Both the position numbers and the translations under genes were made by a program. From Candidatus Woesearchaeota archaeon (GTDB taxonomy: Archaea > Nanobdellota > Nanobdellia > SCGC-AAA011-G17 > PNOQ01), in the NCBI GenBank assembly GCA_964603065.1, contig CAZRTL010000004.1, positions 9,686-73,685 on the forward strand: a stretch of 64,000 bases of DNA. The letters are read 5' to 3'. Under the pieces are notes generated by a model that worked only from the letters and a program-made list of their open reading frames with translations, was not told where the DNA came from and searched no databases. How positions within the stretch are numbered: position 1 is the stretch's first letter; every line of letters starts with the position of its first letter. Positions 3,565 to 60,826 of the stretch are shown piece by piece.

Positions 3565-3577
3565 TTTTTTAAAAAAA

Positions 3578-4998: not shown

Positions 4999-5781
4999 TT
5001 ATATAGATTTCTGAATAACATAATAAAATTCGTTTTGAGTTTTTACTATTCTAAATTTGTATTTTAGTCTATTCAATAGTTTTTCAAACCATCCCCTTCT
5101 AGGATATTTCATCATTTTGTTAGATATTGTTTTTGTTGAGAACGAAGCCACTATAAATTTTGATTTTATTGATTTTAGTAATTCTTCTGAGAACTTATGT
5201 CCCTTTTTTACTTCTAATGGATCTATTACTTTGAATAAAAAAGCTATATCTGTTTTTGGTAAACCTTCTATGTTTTCTTTATTTATGGCTTTTAGTATTG
5301 CTTTCCCTTTTATATTTTTCATTTTGAAGTATTTATTTATGAAATTTACATCTTCTTCATCTATTTCTAAAGCAGTATAGCTAGGATCGCATTCTAGGAA
5401 AGGATAAGAAATTGGATTTATTCCAGAACCTAAATCTAAAATTGATTTTGGTTTATCTGTAATTAGAAAAATTCTGTGATATAGGGTGTTGTACGCCTTC
5501 ATCCTTTCTTTTGTTGATAGGTTTGTTTCTAATATTTTTCTGTGTAATTCTATTGAATTGGGATTATCTTTTAGTTCTTCTAATAATGTATCTCGCTTTT
5601 TTTTCTTTTTTACTTGAAAAGAACCATAGATTCTATGTAAACGTGCTTTGACTCCTTTTATTATTTCTTTGTCTTTTGCTTTAGGTTTTTTCTTTAGAAA
5701 ATTATTTATTTCTTGATCTATTATCTCATCAGATAAGGAAGCATATTTCTTTGATTTTATTTTATTTATTAGGGAATTCAT
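4999..5781 (-). CDS. SAM-dependent methyltransferase, FmrO/Rmt-like (16S rRNA m7G methyltransferase family) candidate
   Basis: ILDLGSGINPISYPF resembles the LD(I/L)xCGxNPL SAM motif of the Rmt/ArmA/Sgm family; N-terminal STKER-like helix; 260 aa. Confidence 0.45.
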   Translation of the reverse strand: MNSLINKIKSKKYASLSDEIIDQEINNFLKKKPKAKDKEIIKGVKARLHRIYGSFQVKKKKKRDTLLEELKDNPNSIELHRKILETNLSTKERMKAYNTLYHRIFLITDKPKSILDLGSGINPISYPFLECDPSYTALEIDEEDVNFINKYFKMKNIKGKAILKAINKENIEGLPKTDIAFLFKVIDPLEVKKGHKFSEELLKSIKSKFIVASFSTKTISNKMMKYPRRGWFEKLLNRLKYKFRIVKTQNEFYYVIQKSI

Positions 5782-7169
5782 TTCTTCGTAATTATGTAGC
5801 CTTCTTTAGAATCTTTTATTTCATAACCTTTAGAACTAATTTCGTCTCTTAATTTGTCTGATTCTTCCCAATCTTTGTCTTCTCTTGCTTTTAATCTTTT
5901 TTCTGCTAAACCTTTAATTTCTTTTGGGATTTTTTCTTCTTTGATATTTTTTAAATCTAAACCTAGGACTTCATCAAATTTGTAAAGTAATTCTAATTTT
6001 TCTTTAGAGCCTAATTCTTTATCCCTTAGGACATTCCATAAAACAGAAACGGCTTGAGGAGTATTTAGATCATCATTCAAACCAGATAAAAATTCCTTTT
6101 CATAAGTATTTTTTGTTTTGTTTGAATCTTTTTTTGTTTTTAATTCTAATATTATATTTTTTAATCTGTCATAAGCATTTTTTGCAGAATCTAAAACTTC
6201 TAATGAAAAAGCTAATTTTTTCCTATAATGTGTTAGTAAAGTTAAATATCTAAAATCTAAAGGAGAATAACCTTTTTCTCCTAAATCAGATATTGTGTAA
6301 ACATTTCCTTCAGACTTCGACATCTTTCCTTCTTTAAGAGTTAGCCACCTTAGGTGTAACCAATATTTTACCCAAGGTCTTTTTTTAGTAGCAGCTTCTG
6401 TTTGAGCTATTTCATTTGTATGATGGATTGGGATGTGTTCTTCTCCACCAGTGTGAATATCAAATTGTTCTCCTAAATATTTGGTTGACATTGCGGAACA
6501 TTCGATATGCCAGCCCGGAAACCCTCGGCCCCACGGTGAATCCCATTGCATAATATGGTTGGGCTGGTTTGTAATCCATAAAGCAAAATCTGAAGAATTT
6601 TTTCTTTCTGGGTCTCTTTCAACACGTGCCCCTTGTTTTAATTCTTCTAAATTTAAATTTCCTAGTTTAGTATAGTCTTTTGCTTTTGAAGTATCAAATA
6701 TAAGTCCAATTTTGGTTTTGTATGTGTAACCATTTTTTTCTATTTTTTTGATCATATCTATCATATCTTTAATATGTTCTGTTGCTTTTGCCCATTTTGT
6801 TGGTTCTAAAATATTTAATTTTTTTAAATCTTCAAAGAAAATATCTTCGTATTTTTTTGAGAGTTTTAATAATGATTCAGAAGTTAGAGGCAATTTTTCT
6901 CTTTTTAGAGCTTTCATCATCTTATCTTCACCTTCGTCTGCATCTGAAGTTAAGTGGCCTACATCTGTTATGTTGATTACATTTTTTACTTTTAGTTTGT
7001 TAAATAATAAGGTTCTTTTTAGAATATCTGTAAATATATACATACGCATGTTCCCGATGTGTTGATTCCAATAAGTAGTTGGACCACAAGAATAAGAAGT
7101 AGCAGTCCCTTTTTTTATTGGTTTGAACTCTTCCTTTTTTCTAGTTAGAGTATTATATAGTTTAAGCAT
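5778..7169 (-). CDS. cysS: cysteinyl-tRNA synthetase
   Basis: HIGN (HIGH) and KMSKS motifs, 463 aa; 4-bp overlap with the downstream gene. Confidence 0.9.
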   Translation of the reverse strand: MLKLYNTLTRKKEEFKPIKKGTATSYSCGPTTYWNQHIGNMRMYIFTDILKRTLLFNKLKVKNVINITDVGHLTSDADEGEDKMMKALKREKLPLTSESLLKLSKKYEDIFFEDLKKLNILEPTKWAKATEHIKDMIDMIKKIEKNGYTYKTKIGLIFDTSKAKDYTKLGNLNLEELKQGARVERDPERKNSSDFALWITNQPNHIMQWDSPWGRGFPGWHIECSAMSTKYLGEQFDIHTGGEEHIPIHHTNEIAQTEAATKKRPWVKYWLHLRWLTLKEGKMSKSEGNVYTISDLGEKGYSPLDFRYLTLLTHYRKKLAFSLEVLDSAKNAYDRLKNIILELKTKKDSNKTKNTYEKEFLSGLNDDLNTPQAVSVLWNVLRDKELGSKEKLELLYKFDEVLGLDLKNIKEEKIPKEIKGLAEKRLKAREDKDWEESDKLRDEISSKGYEIKDSKEGYIITKK

Positions 7170-7212
7170 AAGTTTTGTTTTGTTTTTTGATTTATATAGG
7201 TTATTGTTTGTT

Positions 7213-7255
7213 ATCTTGACAGCTTGCCATGTACGGCAAAAGGACTTATAAATGA
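7213..7255 (+). promoter_or_regulatory. conserved upstream motif (ATCTTGACAGCTTGCCAT...) + TATA box, copy 1
   Basis: One of five near-identical modules; TATA CTTATAAATG 19 bp before the ATG at 7274. Confidence 0.5.
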
Positions 7256-7273
7256 GATTTCCATTTTTTATTT

Positions 7274-7693
7274 ATGAAAAATAGATACTATGTAGATACT
7301 TCTATTTGGAGAGATTATTACGAGAATAGGTCTGACAAATTTAGGCCCTTGGGGGAATGGGCACTGGCTTTTTTTAATAATTCCTTAGAAAATGGAGATT
7401 TTATTCTTTATTCTGAGTTTGTTCTTTTAGAACTTGGAATTAAATATGATAGTGAGGAAATTGAAAAAATCTTGGAGATAGTGAATAGAAGAAATTTATT
7501 AGTTAAAGTAGAGATTACGGGGCAGCAAAGAAAAGAGGCCGCAATTCTCTGTAAGAAAAGGAAAGTTGCATTTGGAGATGCATTGCATATTATTTTAGCT
7601 AGAGATAACAACGCAATTATTATCACTAGAGATAAACATTTTTTAGAACTTGAAGATATATCTGAAATTAGAAAGCCGGAGAATTTAATCTAA
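7274..7693 (+). CDS. PIN-domain (VapC-like) ribonuclease
   Basis: N-terminal YYVDTSIW (PIN Asp), C-terminal ITRDKHF, 139 aa. Confidence 0.65.
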   Translation: MKNRYYVDTSIWRDYYENRSDKFRPLGEWALAFFNNSLENGDFILYSEFVLLELGIKYDSEEIEKILEIVNRRNLLVKVEITGQQRKEAAILCKKRKVAFGDALHIILARDNNAIIITRDKHFLELEDISEIRKPENLI

Positions 7694-8121: not shown

Positions 8122-9477
8122 ATGAAATATAAGACTCATAATTGCGGCGAACTAACTAAAAAAGAAGTTGGTAAGAATGTTATTTTATCTGGTTTTGTAG
8201 AATCAATTAGAAAGCACGGTAAGATTGGTTTTATTAATTTGAAGGATAGATATGGAATTACTCAAATTTTTTTAAGTAAAGAGTTTAATGAAGAATTATT
8301 GAAGTTAACTAGAGAGTCTGTTGTTAGAGTTGAAGGTGAAGTTAAGAAAAGACCTGATGCTAATAAAAAATTAAAAACGGGAGATATTGAAGTTTCTGCA
8401 AATAAATTTGAAATTTTAACTTTAGCTCCAGAATTGCCTTTAGAATTAAATGAAGATATTGAAAGTACTGAAGAAACTAGATTAAAATATAGATACTTAG
8501 ATTTGAGAAAACCTAAGATGCAGGATAATTTAGTTGTTAGGCATAAAATAATTAAAGCTATTAGAGATTTTTTGGATAAGGAGGATTTTTTAGATGTTGA
8601 AACTCCTTTACTAGCTAAGTCTACTCCAGAAGGAGCTAGAGATTATTTAGTTCCAAGTAGATTAGACAAGGGAAAGTTTTTTGCTTTACCACAAAGTCCG
8701 CAATTATTTAAACAGTTATTGATGATTGCTGGAATCGATAAATATTTTCAGATTGCTAAATGTATGAGAGATGAGGATTTGAGAGCAGATAGACAGCCGG
8801 AATTTACCCAATTAGATTTAGAGATGAGTTTTGTTGAGGAAGAAGATGTTTATGGTTTATTTGAGAAGATGTTAAAGTTTGTTTTCAAAGAAGTTTTGAA
8901 TGAAAATTTGAAAATTCCTTTTGAAAGAATTACTTACGAAGAATCTATGAAAAAATATAAATCAGATAAGCCCGATTTAAGAAAAAAAGGAGAAAAATTC
9001 AAGTTTGCTTGGGTGACTGAATTTCCATTATTTGAATGGAGTGAAGAGCAAAAGAGACATGTTTCTTGCCACCACCCGTTTACAGGAATACACCCAGAGG
9101 ATATCGATAAATTAGGTAAAACTCATGATATTAGAAGTAGAAGTTACGATTTAGTTATGAATGGTTGGGAGCTAGGTAGTGGAAGTGTAAGAATTCACGA
9201 TGGAAAATTACAAAGTGAAGTTTTCAAAGCTTTGAAGTTAGAGGAAAAAGATGCTAAAGAGAGATTTGGTTTCTTTTTAGACGCATTAAAGTTTGCTCCC
9301 CCTCATGCCGGCTTTGCAATAGGATTGGACCGGATGATAGCTTTGATTACTGAAAGTGAATCTATTAGAGAAGTTATTGCATTTCCAAAAAATAAAGATG
9401 CGAAAGATCTTATGTTGGATGCTCCAAGCAAAGTTGATAAAAAACAATTAGATGATTTAGGGATAAAGACAAAATGA
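8122..9477 (+). CDS. aspS: aspartyl-tRNA synthetase, archaeal type
   Basis: Class IIb motifs: FALPQSPQLFKQ, GxGxDR (AIGLDRM), N-terminal OB fold; 451 aa. Confidence 0.9.
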   Translation: MKYKTHNCGELTKKEVGKNVILSGFVESIRKHGKIGFINLKDRYGITQIFLSKEFNEELLKLTRESVVRVEGEVKKRPDANKKLKTGDIEVSANKFEILTLAPELPLELNEDIESTEETRLKYRYLDLRKPKMQDNLVVRHKIIKAIRDFLDKEDFLDVETPLLAKSTPEGARDYLVPSRLDKGKFFALPQSPQLFKQLLMIAGIDKYFQIAKCMRDEDLRADRQPEFTQLDLEMSFVEEEDVYGLFEKMLKFVFKEVLNENLKIPFERITYEESMKKYKSDKPDLRKKGEKFKFAWVTEFPLFEWSEEQKRHVSCHHPFTGIHPEDIDKLGKTHDIRSRSYDLVMNGWELGSGSVRIHDGKLQSEVFKALKLEEKDAKERFGFFLDALKFAPPHAGFAIGLDRMIALITESESIREVIAFPKNKDAKDLMLDAPSKVDKKQLDDLGIKTK

Positions 9478-10754
9478 AATTCATGCCAATAGAAGAAGCA
9501 TTAAAGAAAAAATCTGGAAAAGTAGCTATTCGGGGTTGGATTTATAGAATAAGGAAAATGAAAGATAAGAGTTTTATTGTTATGAGAGATTCTTCTGATA
9601 TTATTCAGTGTGTTTTGAAAACTCCTAAATTAGTTAAGGATGCTGATGATTTACTTATTGAAAGTTCTTTAGAGTTAGAGGGTACTTTGAATAAAGATAA
9701 GAGATCTCCCGGTGGTTATGAATTAAACATTTCTAAAATGAATATTATTCACAAGGCAGATGATTTCCCAATTGGTAAAGATCAAAGTCCTGAATTTTTA
9801 TTAGATCAAAGACATCTGTACATAAGAAGTAGAAAAATGACTGCAATTATGAAAATTAGAAGTACTGTTACTGGTGCTTTACATGAATATTTTAGAGGTA
9901 AAGATTTTTATGAATTTCAGAGTCCGATTATAATTCCTGGTGGAGCTGAAGAAGGGCCCACTATGTTTGAAATTAAATATTTTGATAGGCAAATGTTTTT
10001 GGCTCAAACTTGGCAATTGTATGCTGAAGCGGCAATGTTTGGTTTGGAGAAAATTTATTGTATTGCTCCTTCTTTCAGAGCGGAAAAGTCAAAAACTAGT
10101 AGACACTTAACTGAATACTGGCATACTGAAATGGAAGTTGCCTGGTGTGATTTAAGTCAACTAATGGATTATGCTGAAGAAATGGTCAAATTTGTTTTGG
10201 GTAAAGTTTTGAAGAAAAATAAAAAAGAGTTAGAACTTTTAGGTAGAGATGTTAAGAAATTAGAGCCTTCTCTAAAGAAAAAGTTTCCAAGAATTACTTA
10301 TGATGAGGCTCTAAAGAAATTGGAAAAAAACGGTATGAAGGTTGCTTGGGGTAAAGACTTGCGTACTTTGGAAGAAGAAAAACTAATGGAACTATATGAT
10401 ACTGTTGTTTTTGTAACTCACTATCCTAAAGAAGCTATGGCTTTTTACAAACCTAAGGACCCAAAAAATCCTAAAGTGTCCTTATGTTTTGATGCTCTAG
10501 GTCCTGAAGGGGTTGGAGAGTTGATTGGTGGAAGTGAGAGAGATACAAATATTAAAGAGTTAGTTGGTTCTTTAGAAAAATTAAATGAAAATATTGAAGA
10601 TTATAAATACTATTTAGATACAAGAAAATATGGTAGTGTCCCTCATGCTGGTTTTGGCTTAGGAACTGAAAGATTAATTAGATGGATATGTGGTTTGGAT
10701 TCAATAAAAGATGCCATAGGTTTTCCAAGAACAATACAGAGAACACAGCCTTAA
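9474..10754 (+). CDS. asnS: asparaginyl-tRNA synthetase
   Basis: Class IIb; N-terminal IRGWIYRIRK...FIVMRDSSDIIQCV; GLGTERL motif 3; ATGA overlap with aspS. Confidence 0.85.
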   Translation: MKFMPIEEALKKKSGKVAIRGWIYRIRKMKDKSFIVMRDSSDIIQCVLKTPKLVKDADDLLIESSLELEGTLNKDKRSPGGYELNISKMNIIHKADDFPIGKDQSPEFLLDQRHLYIRSRKMTAIMKIRSTVTGALHEYFRGKDFYEFQSPIIIPGGAEEGPTMFEIKYFDRQMFLAQTWQLYAEAAMFGLEKIYCIAPSFRAEKSKTSRHLTEYWHTEMEVAWCDLSQLMDYAEEMVKFVLGKVLKKNKKELELLGRDVKKLEPSLKKKFPRITYDEALKKLEKNGMKVAWGKDLRTLEEEKLMELYDTVVFVTHYPKEAMAFYKPKDPKNPKVSLCFDALGPEGVGELIGGSERDTNIKELVGSLEKLNENIEDYKYYLDTRKYGSVPHAGFGLGTERLIRWICGLDSIKDAIGFPRTIQRTQP

Positions 10755-16418: not shown

Positions 16419-16473
16419 TAAAATAACAAAAGGGTGCGCGAGCCGCGACAAATACTCCAATTCCCGACCCTTT

Positions 16474-16514
16474 ATCTTGTCAGCTTGCCACGCACACGGA
16501 CAGAATTTATAAAT
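16474..16514 (+). promoter_or_regulatory. conserved upstream motif + TATA box, copy 2
   Basis: ATCTTGTCAGCTTGCCACGCACACGGACAGAATTTATAAAT; ATG at 16535. Confidence 0.5.
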
Positions 16515-16534
16515 TAATTTTGTTATATTAAGTT

Positions 16535-17287
16535 ATGAAAATTAATGAAGATCTTGCTGAAGCATTTGGAATTCATGCTGGAGATGGATATTTAAGAGTT
16601 AAAGAAAGAAACAGAGGCGAGATAGATATTAGTGGAAATATTGAAGAAAAAGGATATTATGATGACCACGTAGTTCCTTTGTTTAATAAAATATTTAATT
16701 TAGATATGGGAGGAAGATATTTTTCTAGAGGTACTTATGGGTTTGTTAATTGTCAAAAGGAAGTTAGAAACGTTTTTCTTGAAGCAGGTTTCCCTTCTGG
16801 TAAAAAATCGCAAATTGTAAAAACCCCAGATTGTATTTTGAATAGTGGAGATGAAAAAATATACTCTAAATTTTTAAGGGGATATTTTGATACTGATGGT
16901 TGTTTATATTTTTGTAACAAAAAGGGAGGGGGAAAATATTGTGATTTCAAGAAAAAGTTTCATTATTATCCTCTTTTATCAGTATCTAGTGTATCGAAAA
17001 GATTAATTGAGGATGTGGTGTTTATTCTTAATAGAATTGGATTGCCTCACTATACTTATGATTATCAACCAAAAAATAAAAGAGATAATCATAAATGGGT
17101 TATAACTATTGCTGGAAAAAGTAGACTAGAGAAATGGATGAAATTAATAGGCACTAAAAATCCAGTAAAGCTCAGTAGATATTTAGTTTGGAAAAAGTTT
17201 GGATTTTGTCCTCCACATACTACTTTAAAGCAAAGGGAAGATTTTTTAAATGATAAAGCAGATATCAATTTACTATATTCAGCTTAA
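16535..17287 (+). CDS. free-standing double-motif LAGLIDADG endonuclease-family protein
   Basis: Motif 1 LAEAFGIHAGDGYL, motif 2 FLRGYFDTDGCL; 250 aa. Confidence 0.75.
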   Translation: MKINEDLAEAFGIHAGDGYLRVKERNRGEIDISGNIEEKGYYDDHVVPLFNKIFNLDMGGRYFSRGTYGFVNCQKEVRNVFLEAGFPSGKKSQIVKTPDCILNSGDEKIYSKFLRGYFDTDGCLYFCNKKGGGKYCDFKKKFHYYPLLSVSSVSKRLIEDVVFILNRIGLPHYTYDYQPKNKRDNHKWVITIAGKSRLEKWMKLIGTKNPVKLSRYLVWKKFGFCPPHTTLKQREDFLNDKADINLLYSA

Positions 17288-28070: not shown

Positions 28071-29265
28071 CGACCCATAAAATATTTCTTCCTTTTTTTC
28101 CAAATCTCGCTGTTTTATTATTTTTTTCTAAATTCCCTAAATGCTCTCGGATAGAAGAATTCCCATAATTTAGTATTTCAACTAGTTCCGCTGTTGTTTT
28201 TGGACTATTACTAAGAATTCTTAGGATCTTATCTCTAGTTGCTCCATCTTTTTCTTTTATTAATCCTCTTTGTTTTCTTTTGATTAGTATTCTAAAATTT
28301 TTTGTTTTGTGGGCAAAATTGCATAGAGGGAATGCTATTTCTAATTTCTCTATATCTTTGGCTAAATTCAAATAACTTTCTGAAGAGATTAAAAATCGAT
28401 ATGAATCAAAGACTCCGTATCTATATTTCTTTTTTATTGGCATACAGCTATAACTACATTTTATTGCTATTTCCCCTACATCTTTTATTAATCTATAATT
28501 TTTTGAATATATTTCTATTACTTCTCCAATGTTCCCATCATCAATTACAAAAGAAACTAATCCTGCTAATAGAAAGTTTTTTGGAAGGGATTTTATATTA
28601 TTAGGAATATATGCATCAAAGGTATTGGTATTTGGTAAATTAAAGTAATAGTTATAAAATTTTGTAATTATTTTTGGGATATACAACTTCCCCAATTTGA
28701 ATTCATTTTCACTATACTTAAAATCTCCGAAAATATTATTTAGTTTTGATAAAAAATTGTTTAATCCTTCGTTATTCATTTGTCTATATGAAGAATTTGT
28801 TTTCTTATCTCCAATATGCCCATCTCCGCAAAAGTGAAATATTACAGAAATTAATTCCGGAGTTAGATATATAGGCAATTTTGGGTTGTATATTCTGCTT
28901 GATCCAGATATTGCATTATAATATTTTATGTTTCTCTCAATTTCTTTCATTAATTTATTATTTCTGGTTTTACTTCTTGTGATTAATTTGGATATCTCTA
29001 TTAATACCCACAATGGGATTGTTCTAGCTTTCTTTTGATTGTTTGGTCCAGAATATCCTTTTTTCCAGTAAAAAAACATTCCCCTTGAATACTTTCTTTT
29101 TAGATTATACTTTCTACTTTGATTGTTAAGATAGTTTATTGCTTTATTTTCACTTTGGAATTGATTAATAAATCGTGCAAGTAAATTATATCTGAACTTC
29201 TCTTTTAATTTAATGTATGTTTCGATCGGAGGAAAATCCCAAATATGGATTTCTTTATATTTCAT
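28063..29265 (-). CDS. LAGLIDADG endonuclease-family protein with C-terminal winged HTH
   Basis: Motif 1 FHFCGDGHIGD, motif 2 LLAGLVSFVIDDGNIG; C-terminal ArsR-like wHTH (KILRILSNSPKTTAELVEILNYGNSSIREHLGNLEK); 400 aa. Confidence 0.65.
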   Translation of the reverse strand: MKYKEIHIWDFPPIETYIKLKEKFRYNLLARFINQFQSENKAINYLNNQSRKYNLKRKYSRGMFFYWKKGYSGPNNQKKARTIPLWVLIEISKLITRSKTRNNKLMKEIERNIKYYNAISGSSRIYNPKLPIYLTPELISVIFHFCGDGHIGDKKTNSSYRQMNNEGLNNFLSKLNNIFGDFKYSENEFKLGKLYIPKIITKFYNYYFNLPNTNTFDAYIPNNIKSLPKNFLLAGLVSFVIDDGNIGEVIEIYSKNYRLIKDVGEIAIKCSYSCMPIKKKYRYGVFDSYRFLISSESYLNLAKDIEKLEIAFPLCNFAHKTKNFRILIKRKQRGLIKEKDGATRDKILRILSNSPKTTAELVEILNYGNSSIREHLGNLEKNNKTARFGKKGRNILWVAI

Positions 29266-29285
29266 ACCCTAATATTGATTTTTTT

Positions 29286-29326
29286 GTTTAAATAGTCTGT
29301 GTCCGTGTATGGCAAGCTGACAAGAT
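29286..29326 (-). promoter_or_regulatory. conserved upstream motif + TATA box, copy 3 (minus strand)
   Basis: Reverse complement reads ATCTTGTCAGCTTGCCATACACGGACACAGACTATTTAAAC; minus-strand start codon at 29265. Confidence 0.5.
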
Positions 29327-29371
29327 AAATTAATGAACAGGAAAAGTAAACAAAAGAGGTTGGCAAGTTAT

Positions 29372-39447: not shown

Positions 39448-39530
39448 AAAAGGAATACAAGTTATTAATTTAAATAGATTTTGGTTTAAAAGAAAGAAAA
39501 AGAATTATTTTCAAGGAGTAAATTAGTTGT

Positions 39531-39571
39531 ATCTTGTCAGCTTGCCACGCACGCAGGTAGAGTTTATAAAT
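39531..39571 (+). promoter_or_regulatory. conserved upstream motif + TATA box, copy 4
   Basis: ATCTTGTCAGCTTGCCACGCACGCAGGTAGAGTTTATAAAT; ATG at 39592. Confidence 0.5.
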
Positions 39572-39591
39572 AAAAAACTATATTTTAAGGT

Positions 39592-40437
39592 ATGGAAATG
39601 GATGTTGAAAGCACTTCTAAATTAATAAGGGGTAAGAAGGAAATTTGTGTTTTTTATAATGATAAAATTTTTGAAGAAGTTATGTCTAATTTGAATCCAA
39701 AAGAAATTATGGGAATTTCTAGAAGATCTGTTTATTATTGGAAGCAAAAAGAGAGACCTATTCCAGTTTCTCATTTAGTCAGTATTTGTAAAAATAATAA
39801 TATTGAAAAAATTAATCTTGTGTCTTTATCTACCAATAGCGGAAATAAAATTAATTTACCTGAAAGCAATAATTTATCTTTATATCATTTTTTGGGATTA
39901 TTATTGGGAGACGGATGTCTTTGTATAAGTAAAGAAAGAGAATTGAAGAGACAAAGCTACACAGTTAGAATTGCTGTTAATAGCAAAAATAGAATAAATC
40001 AAATTTCTAGATTAATGGAGTCTCTTTTTGGAATTAAACCTAGTTGTCATAAATGTAAAGGGTGCTATGAAGTTTGTATTTACTCTAAGGCTTTGTTATT
40101 TTTCTTGAATACATATTATGAAATCCCCATTGGTGAAAAATATCCACTTATGAAGGTTCCTTTGAGAATAAAAAATGATTTTGATAGTATAAGATATTTT
40201 CTAAGAGGATTAATGGATAGCGATGGAAATCAATATATCTATAGGGGGAGATTGTGTTTTCAATTGAGACAAAAATCTGGAGAATTTCTTAGTGAAGTCT
40301 ATAACTTATTTCATAAAATTGGTATGAATATAAATGGGCCCTATTTTGATAAAGCTAATAATTCTTGGGTGATTTGGTGTAGTAAAAAAAACATTGTAGA
40401 TAAATTTATAAATGAAATAGATGCTCTTAAAATTTAG
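39592..40437 (+). CDS. LAGLIDADG endonuclease-family protein with N-terminal HTH
   Basis: Motif 1 LYHFLGLLLGDGCL, motif 2 FLRGLMDSDGNQ; N-terminal HTH-like segment (EIMGISRRSVYYWKQK); 281 aa. Confidence 0.7.
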   Translation: MEMDVESTSKLIRGKKEICVFYNDKIFEEVMSNLNPKEIMGISRRSVYYWKQKERPIPVSHLVSICKNNNIEKINLVSLSTNSGNKINLPESNNLSLYHFLGLLLGDGCLCISKERELKRQSYTVRIAVNSKNRINQISRLMESLFGIKPSCHKCKGCYEVCIYSKALLFFLNTYYEIPIGEKYPLMKVPLRIKNDFDSIRYFLRGLMDSDGNQYIYRGRLCFQLRQKSGEFLSEVYNLFHKIGMNINGPYFDKANNSWVIWCSKKNIVDKFINEIDALKI

Positions 40438-43446: not shown

Positions 43447-44046
43447 TTGTGGAGTTGTGAATCGCTTATAAAGGTTTCTATGGCAAATTTTATAAGTTCG
43501 TTTTCTGAGAATATTGCTATGATTAGGTACTATTATAATCTTATAATTAGATTATTAATTATTTTAATTGTTACTATAAATTATCCTCTGTTTTATGTTA
43601 TTTTGAGTCCCATTACTGTATATTTGAGTTATTTTATACTTGGATTATTTTATGATGTTTTGTTAATTGGAAGTAGTATTGGGATAAATGGTGCAGGGTT
43701 TAGGTTTATTGAGGCTTGTGTTGCTCCTGCTGCCTACTATTTATTGTTTATTTTAATTATTGGATTGAAGGATTTAGACTGGAAAAAAGGTTTGAAAATG
43801 TTCTTTTTGGGCAGTTTATTGATTTTAGGAATGAATTTGTTAAGAATTATTATACTAATTGTTTTAGATGTTGAGTTTGGGAAAGATTATTTTGATGCTG
43901 TCCATCTGATATTTTGGAACTTTGTCTCCGGAGTTTACATAGCTTTAGTTTGGATTTTTTTGGTTAAAAAGTTCAAAGTCAGTAAAATTCCGTATTATTC
44001 TGATTTGAAATATTTCTATAAAAAGAGTTTTCTTAGAAAGAAGTAA
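43447..44046 (+). CDS. polytopic membrane protein, exosortase/archaeosortase-like candidate
   Basis: About 6 TM; Cys in IEACVAPAAY and Arg in MNLLRIII, resembling the Cys/Arg signature helices of the exosortase family; divergent from the surface-protein gene; true start probably internal. Confidence 0.4.
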   Translation: MWSCESLIKVSMANFISSFSENIAMIRYYYNLIIRLLIILIVTINYPLFYVILSPITVYLSYFILGLFYDVLLIGSSIGINGAGFRFIEACVAPAAYYLLFILIIGLKDLDWKKGLKMFFLGSLLILGMNLLRIIILIVLDVEFGKDYFDAVHLIFWNFVSGVYIALVWIFLVKKFKVSKIPYYSDLKYFYKKSFLRKK

Positions 44047-44485
44047 ACCCAAAGTAAATAGATGAAACTATTAGGGCAGCTACAAAAACGCCCAAGGCTA
44101 TTGTTAGTATTGCTTTTATTCTGTTTATTTTGAATAACCAAGCGGCTAAAGCTCCTGTATATGCTCCAGTTAATGGAAAAGGGATAGCTACGAATAAAAA
44201 TAAGGTGGGCAATTCCCATTTCGTTCCGATTTTATGTTCTATTTTTTTTCTCGCCCTATTTACCCATTTATTAAAAAAATATCTATAGGGTTTTATTTTG
44301 TAAAATTGATGATGTAATGTATCTAGAAATATCAAAAATATTGGAACTATCAATATATTTGCTAAAATAGAAAAAATGAACGCCGTTGGAAAACTTATTC
44401 CAGTTTGTAGAGCATAAGGTAGGCCACCTCTAACTTCGGAGATAGGAAGCATACTAAGAATTATTGAGTTTAATAGATTGTTCAT
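44033..44485 (-). CDS. small membrane protein (small multidrug-export/COG2426-like)
   Basis: PISEVRGGLPYAL motif and 4 TM; 150 aa. Confidence 0.4.
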   Translation of the reverse strand: MNNLLNSIILSMLPISEVRGGLPYALQTGISFPTAFIFSILANILIVPIFLIFLDTLHHQFYKIKPYRYFFNKWVNRARKKIEHKIGTKWELPTLFLFVAIPFPLTGAYTGALAAWLFKINRIKAILTIALGVFVAALIVSSIYFGFTSF

Positions 44486-44511
44486 AAAATTGGATAATAT
44501 TTAAAGTTTAT

Positions 44512-45216
44512 TTAAGTTTTGTTATTAAGAATTTGTGTAATCAATTGTTTTTGTCCACTTAAAAAATTCCAATCTGGATTATTTGAAAAATTCTCTTCAA
44601 AGTTGGGTATTTTCATCTTTAAAACTTCTTTTGCATAAAGATTTGTATAACCGTGCCGTATTTCCTTAAATTGAAAAGGCAATTTATGCTTAAATATATT
44701 CAAAAAACTATCATCTTCTACTTCAATTTCTACAAATAAACCTAGATTATTAACAGAGTCGATACAAATCTTACAATTCTCATTTTCTGCAGACCATCTA
44801 GTTTTTTTGATTTTTATTTTCTCAATAAATTTAAGTTTTTGAAAAAGCTCTTTAAGTTTATTACTATCTATTTTGTTTGGTAAATCCATATTATGATTAA
44901 TATTTGCAATATTGAACAAATGAGCTAAATCTTTTTTAGAAATGGGTAAATTATATTCTTTTTCCAATACAAACCAGGGATTTGGTTTTTTTTCCGGTAT
45001 AAGAAATAAAGCTTTGTAAGCAACCTCTTTATCATTTCTTATTCTTAATACATGATTTAGTTTAAAATAAAAATTATCTTTCAAATCATAATAAGTATCA
45101 TTATCCTGCTTTACACTTTCAAATTTAATATCGAATAATTCTTCAATTATTTTCTTGATATTATAGATACTATGATTTCCTAAGATTCTTACTTTAATTT
45201 CTTTTTCTTCCCCCAT
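44512..45216 (-). CDS. CYTH-domain (CyaB/thiamine-triphosphatase-like) protein candidate
   Basis: N-terminal ExExK (EKEIKVRI); 234 aa; weak. Confidence 0.4.
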   Translation of the reverse strand: MGEEKEIKVRILGNHSIYNIKKIIEELFDIKFESVKQDNDTYYDLKDNFYFKLNHVLRIRNDKEVAYKALFLIPEKKPNPWFVLEKEYNLPISKKDLAHLFNIANINHNMDLPNKIDSNKLKELFQKLKFIEKIKIKKTRWSAENENCKICIDSVNNLGLFVEIEVEDDSFLNIFKHKLPFQFKEIRHGYTNLYAKEVLKMKIPNFEENFSNNPDWNFLSGQKQLITQILNNKT

Positions 45217-45316
45217 ATTGGTAGATTGGTATCCATTTATATAAATCTTCTTGAAATGGGTCTTGTAAATATCTTTGGGACGATAACTTTTTATATCTCA
45301 ATTATAGTTAATCATT

Positions 45317-45562
45317 ATGGACTGGAATTTTGAAAAATATGGGTTTAAGATAATGAAGTGGGATTTTCCTGAAGAGGATATGCCCCATTGTGAAATAGCA
45401 TTACGAATCAATACTGGTTTAAAAAAAATAGATGATGAAACCTACTCATTTTCAGGTTCTCCGCTCCCATGGGATGGAGAATTAGAAATGCTTAAAAATT
45501 TGAAAAAAAGTATTGAGTTGGCAATTAAAGAAATTGAAGATAAAGTGAAGGATTCTAAATGA
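45317..45562 (+). CDS. hypothetical small protein
   Basis: 81 aa ORF. Confidence 0.3.
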   Translation: MDWNFEKYGFKIMKWDFPEEDMPHCEIALRINTGLKKIDDETYSFSGSPLPWDGELEMLKNLKKSIELAIKEIEDKVKDSK

Positions 45563-45651
45563 ATCTTTAAATTTGATTGGGCAATATGGGCAATTATACC
45601 TCTTTTATCGAAAGAGATATATAATAGTCATCTTATCCACTTTAAACAAAA

Positions 45652-46044
45652 ATGAAAGAAATTTTAATGTATGAAAATAGAAAGTCTGGAACTTATATTT
45701 GGGATATTTCTACACCTGAACTTAAAGATCAAGCTTTCTTAAAATTATTTAGAGTCTTAGATGAAGAATGGAACGTTTATTTTGAGTTAAAGGAATTAAA
45801 ACAACCTGAATCTCCTGGAATGAGTAGAGAAGAAGTGGAAGCAATGCCTGAAGGATCAATTCGAGAGAGTGCATTGGAAGCATTATTAAAATATGAAAAA
45901 TCCCTAAAAGAATTTAGATTGTTAGAGGAAGACAGTAAACTATATGAATTGGCTAAAGAAGGAGATGTAAGCAAGGCAAAATTACTTTTAGAATTACATA
46001 GAGATTATGAGTACGAAAAATGGGATACTCATCAGGTCATGTAA
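45652..46044 (+). CDS. hypothetical acidic protein
   Basis: 130 aa ORF; its stop codon overlaps the left 48-bp repeat. Confidence 0.3.
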   Translation: MKEILMYENRKSGTYIWDISTPELKDQAFLKLFRVLDEEWNVYFELKELKQPESPGMSREEVEAMPEGSIRESALEALLKYEKSLKEFRLLEEDSKLYELAKEGDVSKAKLLLELHRDYEYEKWDTHQVM

Positions 46045-46091
46045 AAATATTATTACTTTTTATCTTGAGATCCTTGAAAAATCATTAAATC
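46044..46091. repeat. 48-bp direct repeat, copy A (TTACTTTTTATCTTGAGATCCTTGAAAAATCATTAAATCTTCGGTTGT)
   Basis: 47/48 identical to copy B at 47019..47066; on the minus strand it encodes TTEDLMIFQGSQDKK*, identical to the C-terminus of gene 47019..47864. Confidence 0.85.
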
Positions 46092-46110
46092 TTCGGTTGT
46101 TAATTACTTT

Positions 46111-46947
46111 TTATGGAAAGAAAGTATATTTTGGCATATTTAATATCCTAATGGAATCATAATCTTTTATTATGTCGGAAAAACTATTCGTTAGCTCCAT
46201 TGTGAAATTTTTTAACTGATTTACATCTTTCATCTCTAAGTCAATTTCATAATCCCATTCGGCCAATGTTCTTATTACAGATATTACTCGATTGTTTGAT
46301 CTGCAGAAAGAAAGTAATTTGTCCTCCTTTTGTTTAGATAAATTGCTCAGAAATATTAACAGTTTATAGTGGGATTGATTGATTTTTTCCTGATCTAAGA
46401 TTATGTTATATCCTAGGATAATCTCTTCTTTCTTTAATTTTTTTAATCTTTGTAAAATTGTATCTGGAGAGATTTTAATTTCCTTGGACAATTCTATGGC
46501 ACTTGTCCTAGAGTTTTTTCCTAAAATCGTACATATTTGATTATCTATTTCATCTAGCTCTATGAAATTTTTATAATACTTGTAAGAAATTTTTTTAAAA
46601 CTAGTTCTTTCTTTATCTATTAGATAATCTCTTGGGAAAAATTCTGCATTTAAACTAATCGATATGGTTTTTTTCATAATATATTTATTGAATTTTTCAA
46701 ATAGAGTATTGATTGTTTCTTGCAATTGTACTTGATCTTTTACATATGCAATGAAAGCGATATCGTAATTCCCTTCTAAATTTCCGATCCATGCTATTTT
46801 TGGATGATTTATTAAATATTTTAAGATGGTATTTCTTTTCTGCTCATTTATATTATGCAATTTTAACATAACTTGATAATAAGAATTACCTAATTTAGTG
46901 CTGTTTAAGATTGTTAGAAATTTTCGTATTATCCCCTCCCGTTCCAA
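46111..46947 (-). CDS. Lrp/AsnC-family transcriptional regulator with unusual RAM-HTH-RAM domain order
   Basis: Central HTH_AsnC (IDNQICTILGKNSRTSAIELSKEIKISPDTILQRLKKL) with RAM-like regions on both sides; 278 aa; flanked by the 48-bp repeats. Confidence 0.6.
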   Translation of the reverse strand: MEREGIIRKFLTILNSTKLGNSYYQVMLKLHNINEQKRNTILKYLINHPKIAWIGNLEGNYDIAFIAYVKDQVQLQETINTLFEKFNKYIMKKTISISLNAEFFPRDYLIDKERTSFKKISYKYYKNFIELDEIDNQICTILGKNSRTSAIELSKEIKISPDTILQRLKKLKKEEIILGYNIILDQEKINQSHYKLLIFLSNLSKQKEDKLLSFCRSNNRVISVIRTLAEWDYEIDLEMKDVNQLKNFTMELTNSFSDIIKDYDSIRILNMPKYTFFP

Positions 46948-47018
46948 GGAATTAATTCTATACCTTATAGTTTCTTGTTTTATTCCTGTAGCCTTTGCTA
47001 TTTGGGAATAGATTTAGC

Positions 47019-47066
47019 TTACTTTTTATCTTGAGAACCTTGAAAAATCATTAAATCTTCGGTTGT
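47019..47066. repeat. 48-bp direct repeat, copy B (3' end of gene 47019..47864)
   Basis: See copy A. Confidence 0.85.
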
Positions 47067-47864
47067 AAGTTTTTTCTTTGTTTTTAATTTCTCTTCAACT
47101 TCTCTAGTTTTTTCTTTAAGAACTTTATCTGTTTCTCTTTTGTTCTTTGAAATTATTTCTTCGCCCAATTCTTTAGCATTTTTTAGTTTATTTTTTAACT
47201 GTTCATTAACTTTAGAAAATTTTTCTTTGGATTCTATAAATTTTTTAAAAGCCTCTTCTTGCTCTTTTCTTAATTCATTTATCTTTTTTGTTAACTCGAA
47301 AAATTCAGAATATCCTTTTGCTTCTTTAGATTCATCTCTTATTTTTTTATGATATTCTTCTGCTTTTTGTTTTGTTTTTGTTATTTTATCAGAAAGTTCT
47401 TTTAATTCCTTGAATAATGATTGTACATCTCCTGCATCTTGGAGTTGTTTTTTAAATTGATTAATTTGCCTCATGATTGTCTTTTCTTTTTCAAAAGACA
47501 CCCCTTCTGTTTCTATCGTAAACTCTAATTTTTCAATTTTCTTTATTATTCCAGATGGATCGAAGTTAATCTTCTTTTCCTTTAGAATTTTTTGTTTTTC
47601 TTTGTTTAGTTCTTGAAACTTTTTAATTAATCCCTGGACTTCTTTGTTATATTTGTCTCTTTCTGTTTTTAATTTCTGAATATTTTCACTTGATTTATCT
47701 TTTTTTGTTTTTAAAGATTTAATTTTGTTAATTAGACTAGAAATATCTTTTTTCAAGTTCTCCTTTTTAGAAAACCAGTTTTCTTTCTGGATATTTAATT
47801 CGTTCAAACTTTTTTTTAGTTGAATTATTTCTTCTTTAAGTTTCGTTGATTGTTTTTTGTCCAT
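47019..47864 (-). CDS. K/E-rich coiled-coil protein
   Basis: 281 aa, heptad-rich; last 16 codons lie in repeat B. Confidence 0.4.
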   Translation of the reverse strand: MDKKQSTKLKEEIIQLKKSLNELNIQKENWFSKKENLKKDISSLINKIKSLKTKKDKSSENIQKLKTERDKYNKEVQGLIKKFQELNKEKQKILKEKKINFDPSGIIKKIEKLEFTIETEGVSFEKEKTIMRQINQFKKQLQDAGDVQSLFKELKELSDKITKTKQKAEEYHKKIRDESKEAKGYSEFFELTKKINELRKEQEEAFKKFIESKEKFSKVNEQLKNKLKNAKELGEEIISKNKRETDKVLKEKTREVEEKLKTKKKLTTEDLMIFQGSQDKK

Positions 47865-52154: not shown

Positions 52155-53198
52155 ATGGGTTTATTTGATGATATTCTACACGATAATGAATCGCTTTTCA
52201 TTAATGAGCAGGCTCTAGATTATGATTATGTTCCTAAAGAAATCCCTCATAGAGAAAATCAGCAGCATTACATTGCAGAAGTGATAAAACCTTTATTTCA
52301 AAGAAAATCTGGAAGAAATTTATTTATTACTGGAGTTCCTGGAATTGGAAAAACAGTTGCTGTTAAACATGTTTTAAGAGAGTTAGAGGAAAAGACGGAT
52401 GATATTTTTACAGTATATATTAATTGCTGGAAGAAAGATACTAGTTATAAAATTTTATTGGATATTTGTGAGCAGCTAAATTACAAGTGGATTCATAATA
52501 AGAGAACAGATGAATTAATGAAAATTGTTTCTGATTTGGTTAATAAAAAATCTGTTGTTGTTGTTTTAGATGAAGTAGATAGGGTTAAGGAGTTAGATAT
52601 TTTGTATAATTTCTCCGAGGATTTTTATAAAAAATGTATTTTAATGATTGCTAATAATGGAGATTGGATTATTAATTTGGATGAAAGAATAAAATCTAGA
52701 CTAAATGTTGATATTTTGGAGTTTAAGTCTTATAATTATAATGAGACTTTTGATATTTTGAAACAAAGAGCAAACTATGCTTTTGTTGAAAATGTTGTTG
52801 ATGAGAAAGTTATTGAATTAACTGCTAGTAAAGCCTTTGAGAATGGTGATGTTAGAACGGGAATATTTTTGTTGAGAGAAAGTGGGAATGTTGCCGAGAT
52901 GAAAGCTTCTAGGAATATCTTGGTTGAGCATTGTGAGAAGGCTATTGAAAAAATGAATAATTTTAAAATTAAAAATGTTGATGAATTTGGTGAAGAGGAA
53001 AAGAAGATTTTAGAGCTAATAAAAGAAAATTCTGGATTAACCATAAAAGAGTTGTTTGATTTGTATTCTGGAGGGGTCTCATATAGGACATTTCATAGGA
53101 AAATAGAAGAATTAGATAAAAATAATATGATTTCTTTGGGGGAATTAAAAGATAAGTCTAAAGTTGTTAATTATAATAAGAAATTGAGTGAGTTCTAG
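52155..53198 (+). CDS. orc1: Orc1/Cdc6 AAA+ replication initiator
   Basis: Walker A GVPGIGKT, Walker B VVVLDEVD, C-terminal winged helix; 347 aa. Confidence 0.85.
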   Translation: MGLFDDILHDNESLFINEQALDYDYVPKEIPHRENQQHYIAEVIKPLFQRKSGRNLFITGVPGIGKTVAVKHVLRELEEKTDDIFTVYINCWKKDTSYKILLDICEQLNYKWIHNKRTDELMKIVSDLVNKKSVVVVLDEVDRVKELDILYNFSEDFYKKCILMIANNGDWIINLDERIKSRLNVDILEFKSYNYNETFDILKQRANYAFVENVVDEKVIELTASKAFENGDVRTGIFLLRESGNVAEMKASRNILVEHCEKAIEKMNNFKIKNVDEFGEEEKKILELIKENSGLTIKELFDLYSGGVSYRTFHRKIEELDKNNMISLGELKDKSKVVNYNKKLSEF

Positions 53199-53232
53199 TA
53201 ATACTTATAAGTTTTCCTCAATTCCCTTTTTC

Positions 53233-53553
53233 ATGGGTAAAAAGCTAACCTTAGGATTAATTGTATTAGGATCTTTTGCCTTGGGTTTTGTTACTAAGGG
53301 AAATATGGAGTTTGGAAAACCTGCCAAAATTGTTAGAAATCCTGGAACTATGTTAACTGGAGCCGAGATAGAAACTCAATTTGGGATTATGAATCGATTG
53401 AATGTTTATTTTTCGGATGGTAATATTTACACTTTAGAATATATTAGAAATAGTCTTCCTGGACAGTTTATTAATCCTTTTGTTGAAGAAAGAAATTATC
53501 CTGAATTTAATACTACAAGACAAGATAATTTGAGGGAGGATTTTTATATTTGA
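53233..53553 (+). CDS. small secreted hypothetical protein
   Basis: Start taken at MGKKLTLGLIVLGSFALGFV (signal peptide); the track ORF starts earlier at 53188. Confidence 0.35.
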   Translation: MGKKLTLGLIVLGSFALGFVTKGNMEFGKPAKIVRNPGTMLTGAEIETQFGIMNRLNVYFSDGNIYTLEYIRNSLPGQFINPFVEERNYPEFNTTRQDNLREDFYI

Positions 53554-55040: not shown

Positions 55041-55075
55041 TTTTCTTTTCTTTTTTAATTCTTAAGTAACAAACC

Positions 55076-55118
55076 ATCTTGTCAGCTTGCCACGCACGCG
55101 GATAGGATATTTAAATGG
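55076..55118 (+). promoter_or_regulatory. conserved upstream motif + TATA box, copy 5
   Basis: ATCTTGTCAGCTTGCCACGCACGCGGATAGGATATTTAAAT; first plausible ATG at 55150 preceded by GGTGA. Confidence 0.5.
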
Positions 55119-55149
55119 AATTTGTAATAGGTTGGTTAGAGGTGATAAA

Positions 55150-60487: not shown

Positions 60488-60826
60488 TTAAAACTTCTTT
60501 AAGGTTTTTATTAATTTATCCACATCTTCTTTCTTTTTTTTAGTTCTAAGGTGTTTTTTCTTTTCTTCTAGCAATTCTACTACTATTGCTTCTAAATATT
60601 TTATTCTTACTTTTGATTCTCGCAGATCCTTGGATAGTTGTGCTAGGGAAATCCATAGCTGAGCTATTTTTTGATCTTTAGCTAAAACAATATCCTCTTT
60701 GTATTCTGCAGAACCCTTTATTACCTTATCAAGATGCAACTTTAAAGGAGATTTTATATTTTCTCGCCAATTTGCCATGAAAGAGGGAATTGAGGAAAAC
60801 TTATATAGCTTTTTAATATAACTCAA
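60488..60826 (-). CDS. hypothetical coiled-coil protein
   Basis: 112 aa ORF. Confidence 0.3.
   Translation of the reverse strand: MSYIKKLYKFSSIPSFMANWRENIKSPLKLHLDKVIKGSAEYKEDIVLAKDQKIAQLWISLAQLSKDLRESKVRIKYLEAIVVELLEEKKKHLRTKKKKEDVDKLIKTLKKF

Follow-up and report, generated by a model that had tools for sequence, protein, structure and literature searches.

The 64-kb window, by which is meant the whole stretch of DNA analysed (64,000 nucleotides), comes from a Woesearchaeota/Pacearchaeota-like (DPANN) archaeon and contains two direct copies of a 48-bp repeat on either side of a truncated Lrp/AsnC gene (Lrp'), immediately downstream of a coiled-coil gene. This arrangement is probably the scar of a one-off, illegitimate, microhomology-mediated recombination within a lineage-specific islet, in which a gene fragment was captured and a short stretch duplicated, and not a mobile cassette. 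The reading is carried by the observed anatomy of the repeats, the truncation of the gene between them, the insertion relative to related genomes, the uniqueness of the arrangement and the microhomology at its joints; from these we infer the order of events and the mechanism. The features of the locus are as follows.

44033..44485, minus strand: Sm_multidrug_ex gene (Pfam E=4e-32), ancestrally the gene directly downstream of the coiled-coil gene
44473..47039, no strand: lineage-specific islet of 2.57 kb, delimited by blastn breakpoints and by the coiled-coil/Sm adjacency in 17 relatives
44512..45216, minus strand: islet gene with a CYTH domain and a TATA box of its own
45317..45562, plus strand: 81-aa ORF in the islet, with no assigned function
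45652..46044, plus strand: ORFan of 130 aa that converges on copy A and has a TATA-like box of its own and no Pfam match
46043..46047, minus strand: run of five T just past copy A, on the sense strand of the coiled-coil gene and Lrp', a candidate archaeal terminator
46053..46100, minus strand: repeat copy A, an orphan duplicate 47/48 identical to copy B
46101..46114, minus strand: 3-nt spacer (46101-46103) and a third copy of the repeat's terminal 11-mer (46104-46114)
46111..47013, minus strand: Lrp', a 5'-truncated tandem Lrp/AsnC gene with an open frame of 300 codons, recognised by homology to 318-aa proteins
47011..47018, minus strand: junction or filler of 8 nt (sense GCTAAATC), from the coiled-coil stop to the first Lrp-homologous codon
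47019..47066, minus strand: repeat copy B, the functional last 15 codons and stop codon of the coiled-coil gene
47019..47864, minus strand: DUF7121 coiled-coil gene, 281 aa (Pfam DUF7121 E=5.5e-9; synteny)

The coiled-coil gene is the last of the conserved rpl1-rpl10(P0)-rpl12(P1) cluster, and alignment of the 139 homologues found identifies a family-invariant motif, KKLTTEDLxxFQ, at the C-terminus of its protein, with L266, T267, T268, D270, L271, F274 and Q275 as the invariant residues. Copy B encodes this motif, confirming an earlier, preliminary description of copy B as the genuine 3' end of the gene at 47019..47864. The same description had reported two near-identical direct copies and had taken copy A for an orphan duplicate on the minus strand, and both points are borne out: comparison within the window shows agreement at 47 of 48 positions, the single mismatch being synonymous (GGT/GGA), and copy A still encodes TTEDLMIFQGSQDKK followed by a stop, with an in-frame TAA two codons upstream. 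At up to three mismatches these are the only matches to the 48-mer in the 64 kb, where shuffled sequences lead to an expectation of zero. Copy A had been placed at 46044..46091 and the repeated unit given as 975 bp; its true position is 46053..46100, the start-to-start distance between the copies is 966 bp, and 8 nt lie between copy A and the stop codon of the convergent 130-aa ORF. A codon-degenerate pattern of the 48-mer had no matches in viral contigs and none in metagenome contigs, the latter in a collection that evidently lacks even the JGI short contigs known to carry the repeat; the search for the 48-mer elsewhere that had been suggested thus found nothing beyond the two window copies, and its metagenome part is weak given these missing carriers. 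The T5 run at 46043-46047 is a candidate terminator that would now have been moved 966 bp from the coiled-coil stop codon, and a reading of the sequence found no run of at least four T within about 55 nt after copy B. Given that Lrp' lies between the coiled-coil stop codon and this putative terminator, it is probably co-transcribed with the coiled-coil gene.

The gene between the copies had been described as an intact regulator of atypical RAM-HTH-RAM architecture with its own promoter, but it is a fragment. Its homologues are 318-aa HTH-RAM-HTH-RAM proteins, to which it aligns from homologue residue 20 (window position 47010) to the stop codon, the closest being 71% identical over residues 20-318. 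Homologue codons 1-19, comprising the start codon and helix 1 of HTH-1, are missing, as is the TTTATAAAT TATA box that lies 27 nt upstream of the ATG in the homologues. An in-frame TAA within the 8-nt filler closes the Lrp frame, and the first in-frame starts, TTG at 46947 and ATG at 46869, have neither a consensus TATA box nor a strong SD. Of the first HTH only the latter half of the HTH profiles is matched, by residues 2-30, from about position 19-22 up to the C-terminal end (47-51); the second HTH lies at residues 153-199 (HTH_24 E=9.5e-15, HTH_AsnC-type E=2e-12), and the AsnC_trans_reg (RAM) score of 25.0 bits equals the curated cut-off. The 318-aa homologues, in the manner of tandem Lrp/AsnC proteins (NirDL/AhbAB-like, Pfam PF22451), give two HTH_AsnC/HTH_24 signals and RAM (AsnC_trans_reg) signals, whereas Lrp' has its second HTH and RAM in place but neither start codon nor promoter, and its N-terminal winged HTH, lacking the first 19 residues, is incomplete. 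The lost N-terminus was sought elsewhere in the window and was not found. A viral origin of Lrp' was considered and rejected, there being no viral relatives and none in viral contigs. In the absence of helix 1 of the first HTH and of a normal start, Lrp' is most likely a young pseudogene; a frame open over 300 codons at roughly 27% GC is compatible with retained function too.

The islet at 44473..47039 stands in place of 17 bp in the closest relative (L013), where the coiled-coil gene overlaps Sm_multidrug_ex, and across 17 relatives the offset of the Sm_multidrug_ex start from the coiled-coil stop codon is between about -30 and +45 nt. The comparison with relatives that had been proposed therefore supports an insertion, of 2.57 kb against the 17 relatives, and shows neither a single-copy empty site nor any presence/absence polymorphism: the arrangement does not vary among the 7 contigs with the exact coiled-coil protein and the 12 with the 130-aa protein. 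Copy A lies within the islet, and lineage-specific DNA extends a further 1.6 kb, to 44473. Of the other islet genes, the CYTH gene has a homologue, 57% identical, that adjoins rpl11 elsewhere, and a viral origin for it was rejected as it has no viral relatives; the 130-aa protein matches only itself among 5.8 billion proteins. A 131-aa/80-aa pair beside an Lrp paralogue in L007 was considered as a relative of the 130-aa/81-aa pair of the window and is not homologous. A second lineage (L014-L016) carries an insertion at the same intergenic point, and none of 30 related loci, these three and 27 others, has an orphan copy of its own coiled-coil tail; a score-30 match in L027, considered as a tail duplicate, is A-rich low-complexity similarity on the opposite strand. 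The islet resembles the archaeal 'dark matter' islands and variable islets (PMC4158269), which are likewise short lineage-specific blocks of ORFans and fast-evolving genes between conserved syntenic genes, but at 2.6 kb it is very small, and no signatures of defence, secretion or mobile elements were seen in it.

Short homologies are present at the joints. The 11-mer TTACTTTTTAT (plus strand) opens each repeat copy and recurs 3 nt beyond copy A, where it overlaps the Lrp' stop codon (46111-46113); its three occurrences in the 64 kb, at 46053, 46104 and 47019, compare with an expected 0.5. Furthermore, the repeat end GATAAAAAGTAA resembles the Lrp gene at its two ends: 11-12 nt are common to it and the 3' end of the Lrp fragment, CCATAAAAAGTAAT, and it matches GATAAAAAG or GATAA(A/G)AAT in codons 5-7 and 13-15 of full-length Lrp homologues. 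The locus thus combines the marks of a microhomology scar, namely short sequence shared at the joint, a truncated capture and a unique event, absent from the 30 related loci. It is proposed that the coiled-coil gene was ancestrally followed directly by Sm_multidrug_ex and that the 2.57 kb would have been built up between them later. A promoter-less fragment of a multi-copy tandem-Lrp gene, from codon 20 to the stop, would have been attached directly behind the coiled-coil stop codon, leaving the terminal 48 nt of the coiled-coil gene on either side of it; the similarities between the repeat end and the Lrp ends are of the kind that would serve template switching or the joining of ends through short homologies. 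One possible route starts with an in-frame tandem duplication of 51 nt, after which the insertion took place at the 11-mer, and another is a single multi-switch replication or repair event; the donor Lrp may have carried GATAAAAAG (5', codons 5-15) and ATAAAAAGTAAT (3' flank) beforehand. At least two steps or a multi-switch event would be needed, given that no simple one-step model produces the duplicated 48 nt together with the additional 11-mer. Two such models were set aside: a staggered cut alone, with duplication of a 48-bp target, does not account for the 11-mer, and crossover at the 11-mer alone would leave a repeat of just 11 nt instead of a full copy A. No pre-insertion sequence, from which the order and number of the events could be read, was found. 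That one repeat boundary coincides with the stop codon would follow if only rearrangements keeping the invariant TTEDLxxFQ tail and the stop survive selection.

MMEJ and MMBIR/FoSTeS-type rearrangements produce short duplications and captured gene fragments, and the window likewise has a truncated capture, a few-base filler, 11-12 nt of joint homology and a short duplication of the flanking target in a unique, non-recurrent event. It differs from simple end joining in that the 48-nt duplication is long and more than one step is assumed, in a mechanism that we infer from the sequence. On the scar reading the event is an ordinary one.

Against the scar reading, a 48-bp direct repeat that rebuilds the 3' end of a gene is also the classic signature of integrase-mediated integration. 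It could be supposed that an attP identical to the last 48 nt gave rise to attL (copy B) and attR (copy A), that a later deletion took the integrase and everything up to Lrp codon 20 and that the 130-aa, 81-aa and CYTH genes stem from an older insertion. Such a decayed integrative element would fit direct repeats that regenerate a conserved gene 3' end in a region that is an insertion relative to relatives, the more so given that L014-L016 carry an insertion at the same intergenic point, that the repeat length falls within the 29-69 bp (median 45) of crenarchaeal att sites and that integration into 3'-distal parts of protein-coding genes is known in archaea, for example in thaumarchaeal iMGEs (PMC6563490). 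To this extent the att-type footprint of the preliminary description stands: the insertion did occur at the 3' end of a conserved gene, a duplication preserved the essential tail of that gene and 48 bp is an att-like length. Site-specific integration of a regulator cassette nevertheless finds no support, the cargo being promoter-less and truncated, with no recombinase and with copy A away from the distal edge, and a decayed element is considered unlikely. The islet and 40 further ORFs of the window (all those of at least 180 aa outside the locus and two smaller ones) were scanned with Pfam and showed no recombinase, transposase or other mobile-element gene, and tblastn of a Pacearchaeota integrase gave no match in the 64-kb window, so that the earlier statement that no integrase is present holds across the whole window. 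The supposed deletion would need to end within 8 nt of the repeat to leave one gene fragment as cargo; copy A lies inside lineage-specific DNA with no third copy next to Sm_multidrug_ex, and the repeats are therefore not at both boundaries of the DNA that relatives lack; the tail is not duplicated in L014-L016 or the 27 other loci; and the extra 11-mer beside copy A is left unexplained. Archaeal attL/attR elements (SSV-type and pNOB8-type, with tyrosine recombinases) likewise have direct repeats of tens of bp, one a functional gene 3' end and one an orphan, but the window differs from them in having no integrase or element genes, a single truncated cargo fragment, an orphan copy that is not at the far boundary and extra 11-nt microhomology at the junction, and in showing no recurrence and no empty site, the element, its repeat and a possible att site having been found nowhere else searched. 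Were precise excision true, this would be a rare protein-gene att site in DPANN archaea.

It is quite unlikely, in turn, that two events between diverged strains produced the locus, one strain having the coiled-coil gene with Lrp' and the other the coiled-coil gene with the 130-aa, 81-aa and CYTH genes. A fragment of the second strain, starting in the coiled-coil tail, would have entered downstream of Lrp', one joint being illegitimate and the other a homologous one located in or beyond Sm_multidrug_ex, and this would agree with copy A running seamlessly into the rest of the islet, with a roughly 1%-diverged strain (L005) in the same samples and with a sole copy difference that is synonymous, as for two alleles under selection. 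However, one synonymous difference out of one has almost no statistical weight, neither parental arrangement occurs among the 7 coiled-coil or 12 130-aa contigs and two independent illegitimate joints are needed. A functional, integrase-less cassette mobilised in trans and delivering a RAM-HTH-RAM regulator would account for the intact 300-codon frame and the almost identical repeats; it is highly improbable, given the lack of an own promoter or clear start signal, the truncated first HTH, the absence of other copies of the unit anywhere searched (no close copy of the cassette was found, the nearest Lrp homologue being 71% identical), the absence of presence/absence polymorphism across samples and the lack of an attC-like structure. 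The two repeat regions have folding z-scores of +0.45 and -0.37, with no attC-like fold of the kind an integron cassette would show, and Rfam gave no match above noise at the locus. We regard it as improbable, too, that the 966-bp unit or a degraded parent of it is an integrase-less cassette whose trans-acting recombinase targets the TTEDLxxFQ-coding tail of the DUF7121 gene, in which case, if true, the tail would be a protein-gene att site not recognised before in DPANN archaea. The combination of TIR, transposase or Cas1 and short TSD that marks transposons, IS elements and casposons is absent, and none of the inverted repeats found is a terminal one at 46101 or 47018; usual TSDs are far shorter than 48 bp. 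An assembly artefact, whether a repeat-induced mis-join or a linearised strain bubble, might be suspected from several short contigs of other samples that stop in or near Lrp' (46255 twice, 46598, 46608, 46957 and 46963), one of which, L048, departs from the window sequence over its last 39 nt. The chance of this is negligible and the artefact was rejected: independently assembled contigs, drawn from several samples and from two assembly pipelines, run through the two copies and all of the DNA between them at 100% identity, base for base, and the copies differ at one base, so that k-mers of 31 or longer tell them apart. Of the three options of the preliminary description (a decayed element, a cassette mobilised in trans and a segmental duplication), the last, taken as a duplication or rearrangement, comes closest to the recombination scar favoured here.

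As a recombination scar, the locus calls for the Lrp/AsnC gene to be flagged in annotation as a 5'-truncated remnant, with no new RAM-HTH-RAM architecture, and the 48-bp repeat is unfit as evidence for an integrative element. As a natural example it illustrates cleanly that the rearrangements surviving beside a ribosomal-protein operon in a reduced DPANN genome are shaped by selection on an invariant C-terminal motif. The tandem Lrp family is a multi-copy paralogue set in DPANN, whose full-length homologues have no flanking repeats, and the locus shows the turnover of this family in these archaea through the capture of fragments and through truncation. L018 has another member of the family that lost its 5' end independently, which is consistent with frequent birth and death of tandem-Lrp paralogues.

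The locus occupies the minus strand where the archaeal rpl1-rpl10(P0)-rpl12(P1) cluster ends, in a genome with a GC content of roughly 25-35% and with relatives labelled Woesearchaeota, Pacearchaeota or Nanoarchaeota. It comprises a coiled-coil gene whose protein has at least 139 homologue clusters, a 48-mer repeat pair and an intervening Lrp/AsnC-type gene:

47019..47864, minus strand, DUF7121 coiled-coil gene, owner of copy B
47019..47066, minus strand, copy B of the 48-mer repeat
46111..47013, minus strand, Lrp', a 5'-truncated tandem Lrp/AsnC gene
46053..46100, minus strand, copy A of the 48-mer repeat

The two copies are direct repeats identical at 47 of 48 positions, as reported in the preliminary description, in which copy A was set nine bases too far to the left and the unit was given as 975 bp; the start-to-start distance is 966 bp. 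No further match with three or fewer mismatches was found across the 64-kb window, where the pair is unique; chance alone would give none. Both copies read TTEDLMIFQGSQDKK* on the minus strand, their sole difference (GGT vs GGA) being synonymous. The assignment of copy B as the 3' end of the coiled-coil gene and of copy A as an orphan is upheld, the latter because an in-frame TAA sits two codons upstream of copy A. Given that the C-terminal KKLTTEDLxxFQ, which precedes a short variable tail, is invariant in the coiled-coil alignment (83-45% identity), the repeat spans a part of the protein that selection must keep. The whole repeat-to-repeat interval is base-for-base identical among independent contigs from several samples and two pipelines (ENA SUTE22-1 scaffolds; Logan contigs of SRR8062320 and SRR8062321; JGI 3300007511), indicating that the arrangement is a property of the natural population; an assembly artefact was ruled out on this ground and retains a negligible probability.

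Lrp' has an open frame of 300 codons, from 47013 to 46111, in which residues 2-30 match the second half of HTH profiles only and residues 153-199 form a complete second HTH. Nearly all of its 55 homologue clusters are HTH-RAM-HTH-RAM proteins of 315-325 aa that start MDNKDKKILYELDKNxRxSYSQIAKAT. By tblastn, homologue residues 20-318 align to 47010..46114 at 71% identity and residues 1-19 have no counterpart anywhere in the window. Full-length homologues carry a TTTATAAAT box ~27 nt upstream of the ATG, the usual leaderless-promoter layout for first genes in the window. Both this box and codons 1-19 are missing from Lrp', whose first Lrp-homologous codon comes 8 nt after the coiled-coil stop; the gene is therefore a fragment that is truncated at its 5' end and lacks a promoter. 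Its earliest in-frame start codons, TTG 46947 and ATG 46869, lack a consensus TATA box and a strong match to the Shine-Dalgarno sequence. The RAM-HTH-RAM architecture and own promoter previously ascribed to this gene were thus misreadings of a truncated HTH-RAM-HTH-RAM homologue.

Several contigs end or diverge within Lrp'. One ENA scaffold (SCRA20-1_SAMN11854485 scaffold_48181, 2368-2406) follows the window without a difference as far as 46598 and departs at 46598/46599, its final 39 nt being absent from the window and from every fetched locus; either the scaffold end is chimeric or another sample carries a structural variant here. Other short contigs stop at 46255 (twice), 46608, 46957 and 46963. 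Elsewhere, a tandem-Lrp member that is 69-70% identical (JGI 3300025317, Ga0209541_10226103, 1-1591) is independently cut at about codon 40 and abuts unrelated DNA, where a repetitive gene of higher GC content lies in the opposite orientation; either this is a genuine second remnant or the contig is chimeric. Three HTH-RAM-HTH-RAM paralogues (2752-3705, 5001-5957 and 9042-10016) share a 10-kb stretch of GCA_975903435.1 with small ORFans and a LAGLIDADG gene. These DPANN genomes carry the family in several copies, in non-conserved contexts, and this truncation and these paralogues suggest that it turns over fast.

At locus L013, from the nearest relative found (85% identity in the coiled-coil protein), the coiled-coil and Sm_multidrug_ex genes overlap, the latter beginning within the former. 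DNA homology runs from 49938 to 47040 and resumes at 44472, and the window therefore has an islet of ~2.57 kb (44473..47039) in place of 17 bp. Among 30 related loci, taken from a species-representative genome scan and from loci fetched earlier, 17 have Sm_multidrug_ex starting about -30 to +45 nt from the coiled-coil stop codon, at coiled-coil identities of 85% down to about 45%, and this adjacency is thus the ancestral state. Intervening DNA is found in two lineages only. In the window it holds Lrp', a 130-aa ORFan, an 81-aa ORF and a CYTH gene; in L014-L016 (coiled-coil 76% identical) it is a 1.4-kb insertion (L014 6868-8286), without duplication of the coiled-coil tail, that holds an unrelated, convergent 171-aa gene and a TrmB-family regulator. 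Insertions have therefore occurred at the same intergenic point at least twice. In no relative is a gene of the window's islet found close to the coiled-coil gene, a search of 5.8 billion proteins gave no homologue of the 130-aa protein, and the only CYTH relative found in metagenome contigs lies beside rpl11. Copy A is positioned mid-islet, not at the distal edge, and there is no third copy beside Sm_multidrug_ex.

On the sense strand the upstream joint reads ...AAA AAA CTT [R: ACA ACC ... GAT AAA AAG TAA] GC TAA ATC TAT TCC CAA, where R is the 48-mer and Lrp homology starts with Y20. The downstream joint reads TTT CCA TAA AAAGTAATTA [R] TAATATTTTTA and is followed by the 130-aa gene in antisense. 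The 11-mer at the end of the repeat, ATAAAAAGTAA (TTACTTTTTAT on the plus strand), occurs at only three places in the window, against 0.5 expected. The third takes in the Lrp' stop codon and is separated by 3 nt from copy A, with which it is in frame; it lies 51 nt (17 codons) from the 11-mer that ends copy A. Full-length Lrp homologues carry GATAAAAAG at codons 5-7, the same string as the repeat's final sense codons GAT AAA AAG, and the closely similar GATAA(A/G)AAT at codons 13-15, so that the repeat end resembles both ends of the captured fragment. Such short homology is of the kind that would be used in template switching or microhomology-mediated joining, and its presence at both fragment ends is not predicted by a site-specific integrase model. 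It is reasonably probable, if well short of certain, that the locus is the scar of a one-off microhomology-mediated rearrangement with a captured gene fragment. No single-step model was found that accounts for both the complete 48-nt duplication and the additional 11-mer. Two routes would fit, the order of events being inferred: the coiled-coil tail was duplicated in tandem and in frame (51 nt) before insertion at the 11-mer, or one multi-switch replication or repair event produced the arrangement.

Of the named phenomena, the attL/attR duplication seen with archaeal integrative elements comes closest; these elements can target 3'-distal parts of protein genes and, in crenarchaea, have att sites of 29-69 bp (PMC6563490). 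The window shares the repeat geometry only, and a decayed integrative element is an unlikely origin: no integrase was found, the repeat boundaries do not match the empty site in relatives and no evidence for mobility of the Lrp' unit was found. The absence of an integrase noted earlier is borne out by Pfam: the proteins of the islet and of 40 further ORFs in the window (every ORF of 180 aa or more outside the locus and two shorter ones) gave housekeeping matches or none, and no integrase, transposase or other recombinase was among them; nor did a Pacearchaeota integrase match the window by tblastn. Terminal inverted repeats are absent from either end of the 918-bp interval, the folding of both repeat copies is no better than that of shuffled sequence, and nothing meaningful came from Rfam. 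No empty site was seen, since 7 of 7 contigs with the exact coiled-coil protein and 12 of 12 with the 130-aa protein show the occupied arrangement or end within it, and a strain diverged by roughly 1% (L005) has an identical junction.

A cassette mobilised in trans is very improbable. The search for the 48-mer elsewhere gave no second site: its codon-degenerate form had no match in a viral contig collection or in metagenome contigs, the latter a weak search of a collection without the short repeat-bearing JGI contigs. The cassette was not seen elsewhere, the nearest Lrp' homologue being only 71% identical, and no flanking repeats surround full-length homologues in other genomes. An orphan copy of the locus's own coiled-coil tail occurs in none of the 30 related loci (best scores at most 22, against 48 in the window); a candidate scoring 30 was rejected as low-complexity similarity. 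Recombination between two strains is also doubtful, a little more so than a decayed element. Integron cassettes and transposon TSDs were rejected on their defining tests. What stands of the interpretation in the preliminary description is an insertion that regenerates the gene end; site-specific integration and a mobile cassette find no supporting evidence. The locus fits an ordinary illegitimate-recombination scar inside a small variable islet like the archaeal 'dark matter' islands (PMC4158269).

No run of four or more T occurs within ~55 nt after copy B and a T5 run directly follows copy A (46043-46047, minus strand). Lrp' is therefore likely to lie between the coiled-coil stop codon and the candidate terminator formerly used by that gene, and to share a transcript with the ribosomal-protein cluster. 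Because it has no normal start and helix 1 of the first HTH is missing, Lrp' is most simply a young pseudogene. The intact 300-codon frame and near-identical repeat copies fit a recent event, and may also be compatible with a truncated product.

Elsewhere in the window, an operator-like motif, ATCTTGTCAGCTTGCCAYRCAC, is strongly conserved, with 16 invariant bases and five copies in 64 kb:

7212-7286, plus strand, upstream of a PIN-domain gene (7274)
16473-16547, plus strand, upstream of a free-standing LAGLIDADG_3 gene (16535)
29260-29329, minus strand, preceding a 400-aa ORF without a Pfam match (29265, minus strand)
39530-39604, plus strand, upstream of a free-standing LAGLIDADG_3 gene (39592)
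55075-55149, plus strand, preceding a small-ORF region at 55.1 kb

A TATA box (TTTATAAAT or ATTTAAA) follows the motif after ~10 nt and is itself ~26 nt before the ATG; the motif resembles a shared regulon or promoter module, which may be linked to the homing-endonuclease-like genes. A 31-nt inverted repeat, 97% complementary, has arms 7.5 kb apart (53206-53236 and 60775-60805) that overlap the 5' ends of ORFs 53188..53553 (plus strand) and 60488..60826 (minus strand). Two class II (D/K/N-type) aminoacyl-tRNA synthetase paralogues are arranged in tandem and overlap (8122-9477 and 9474-10754).
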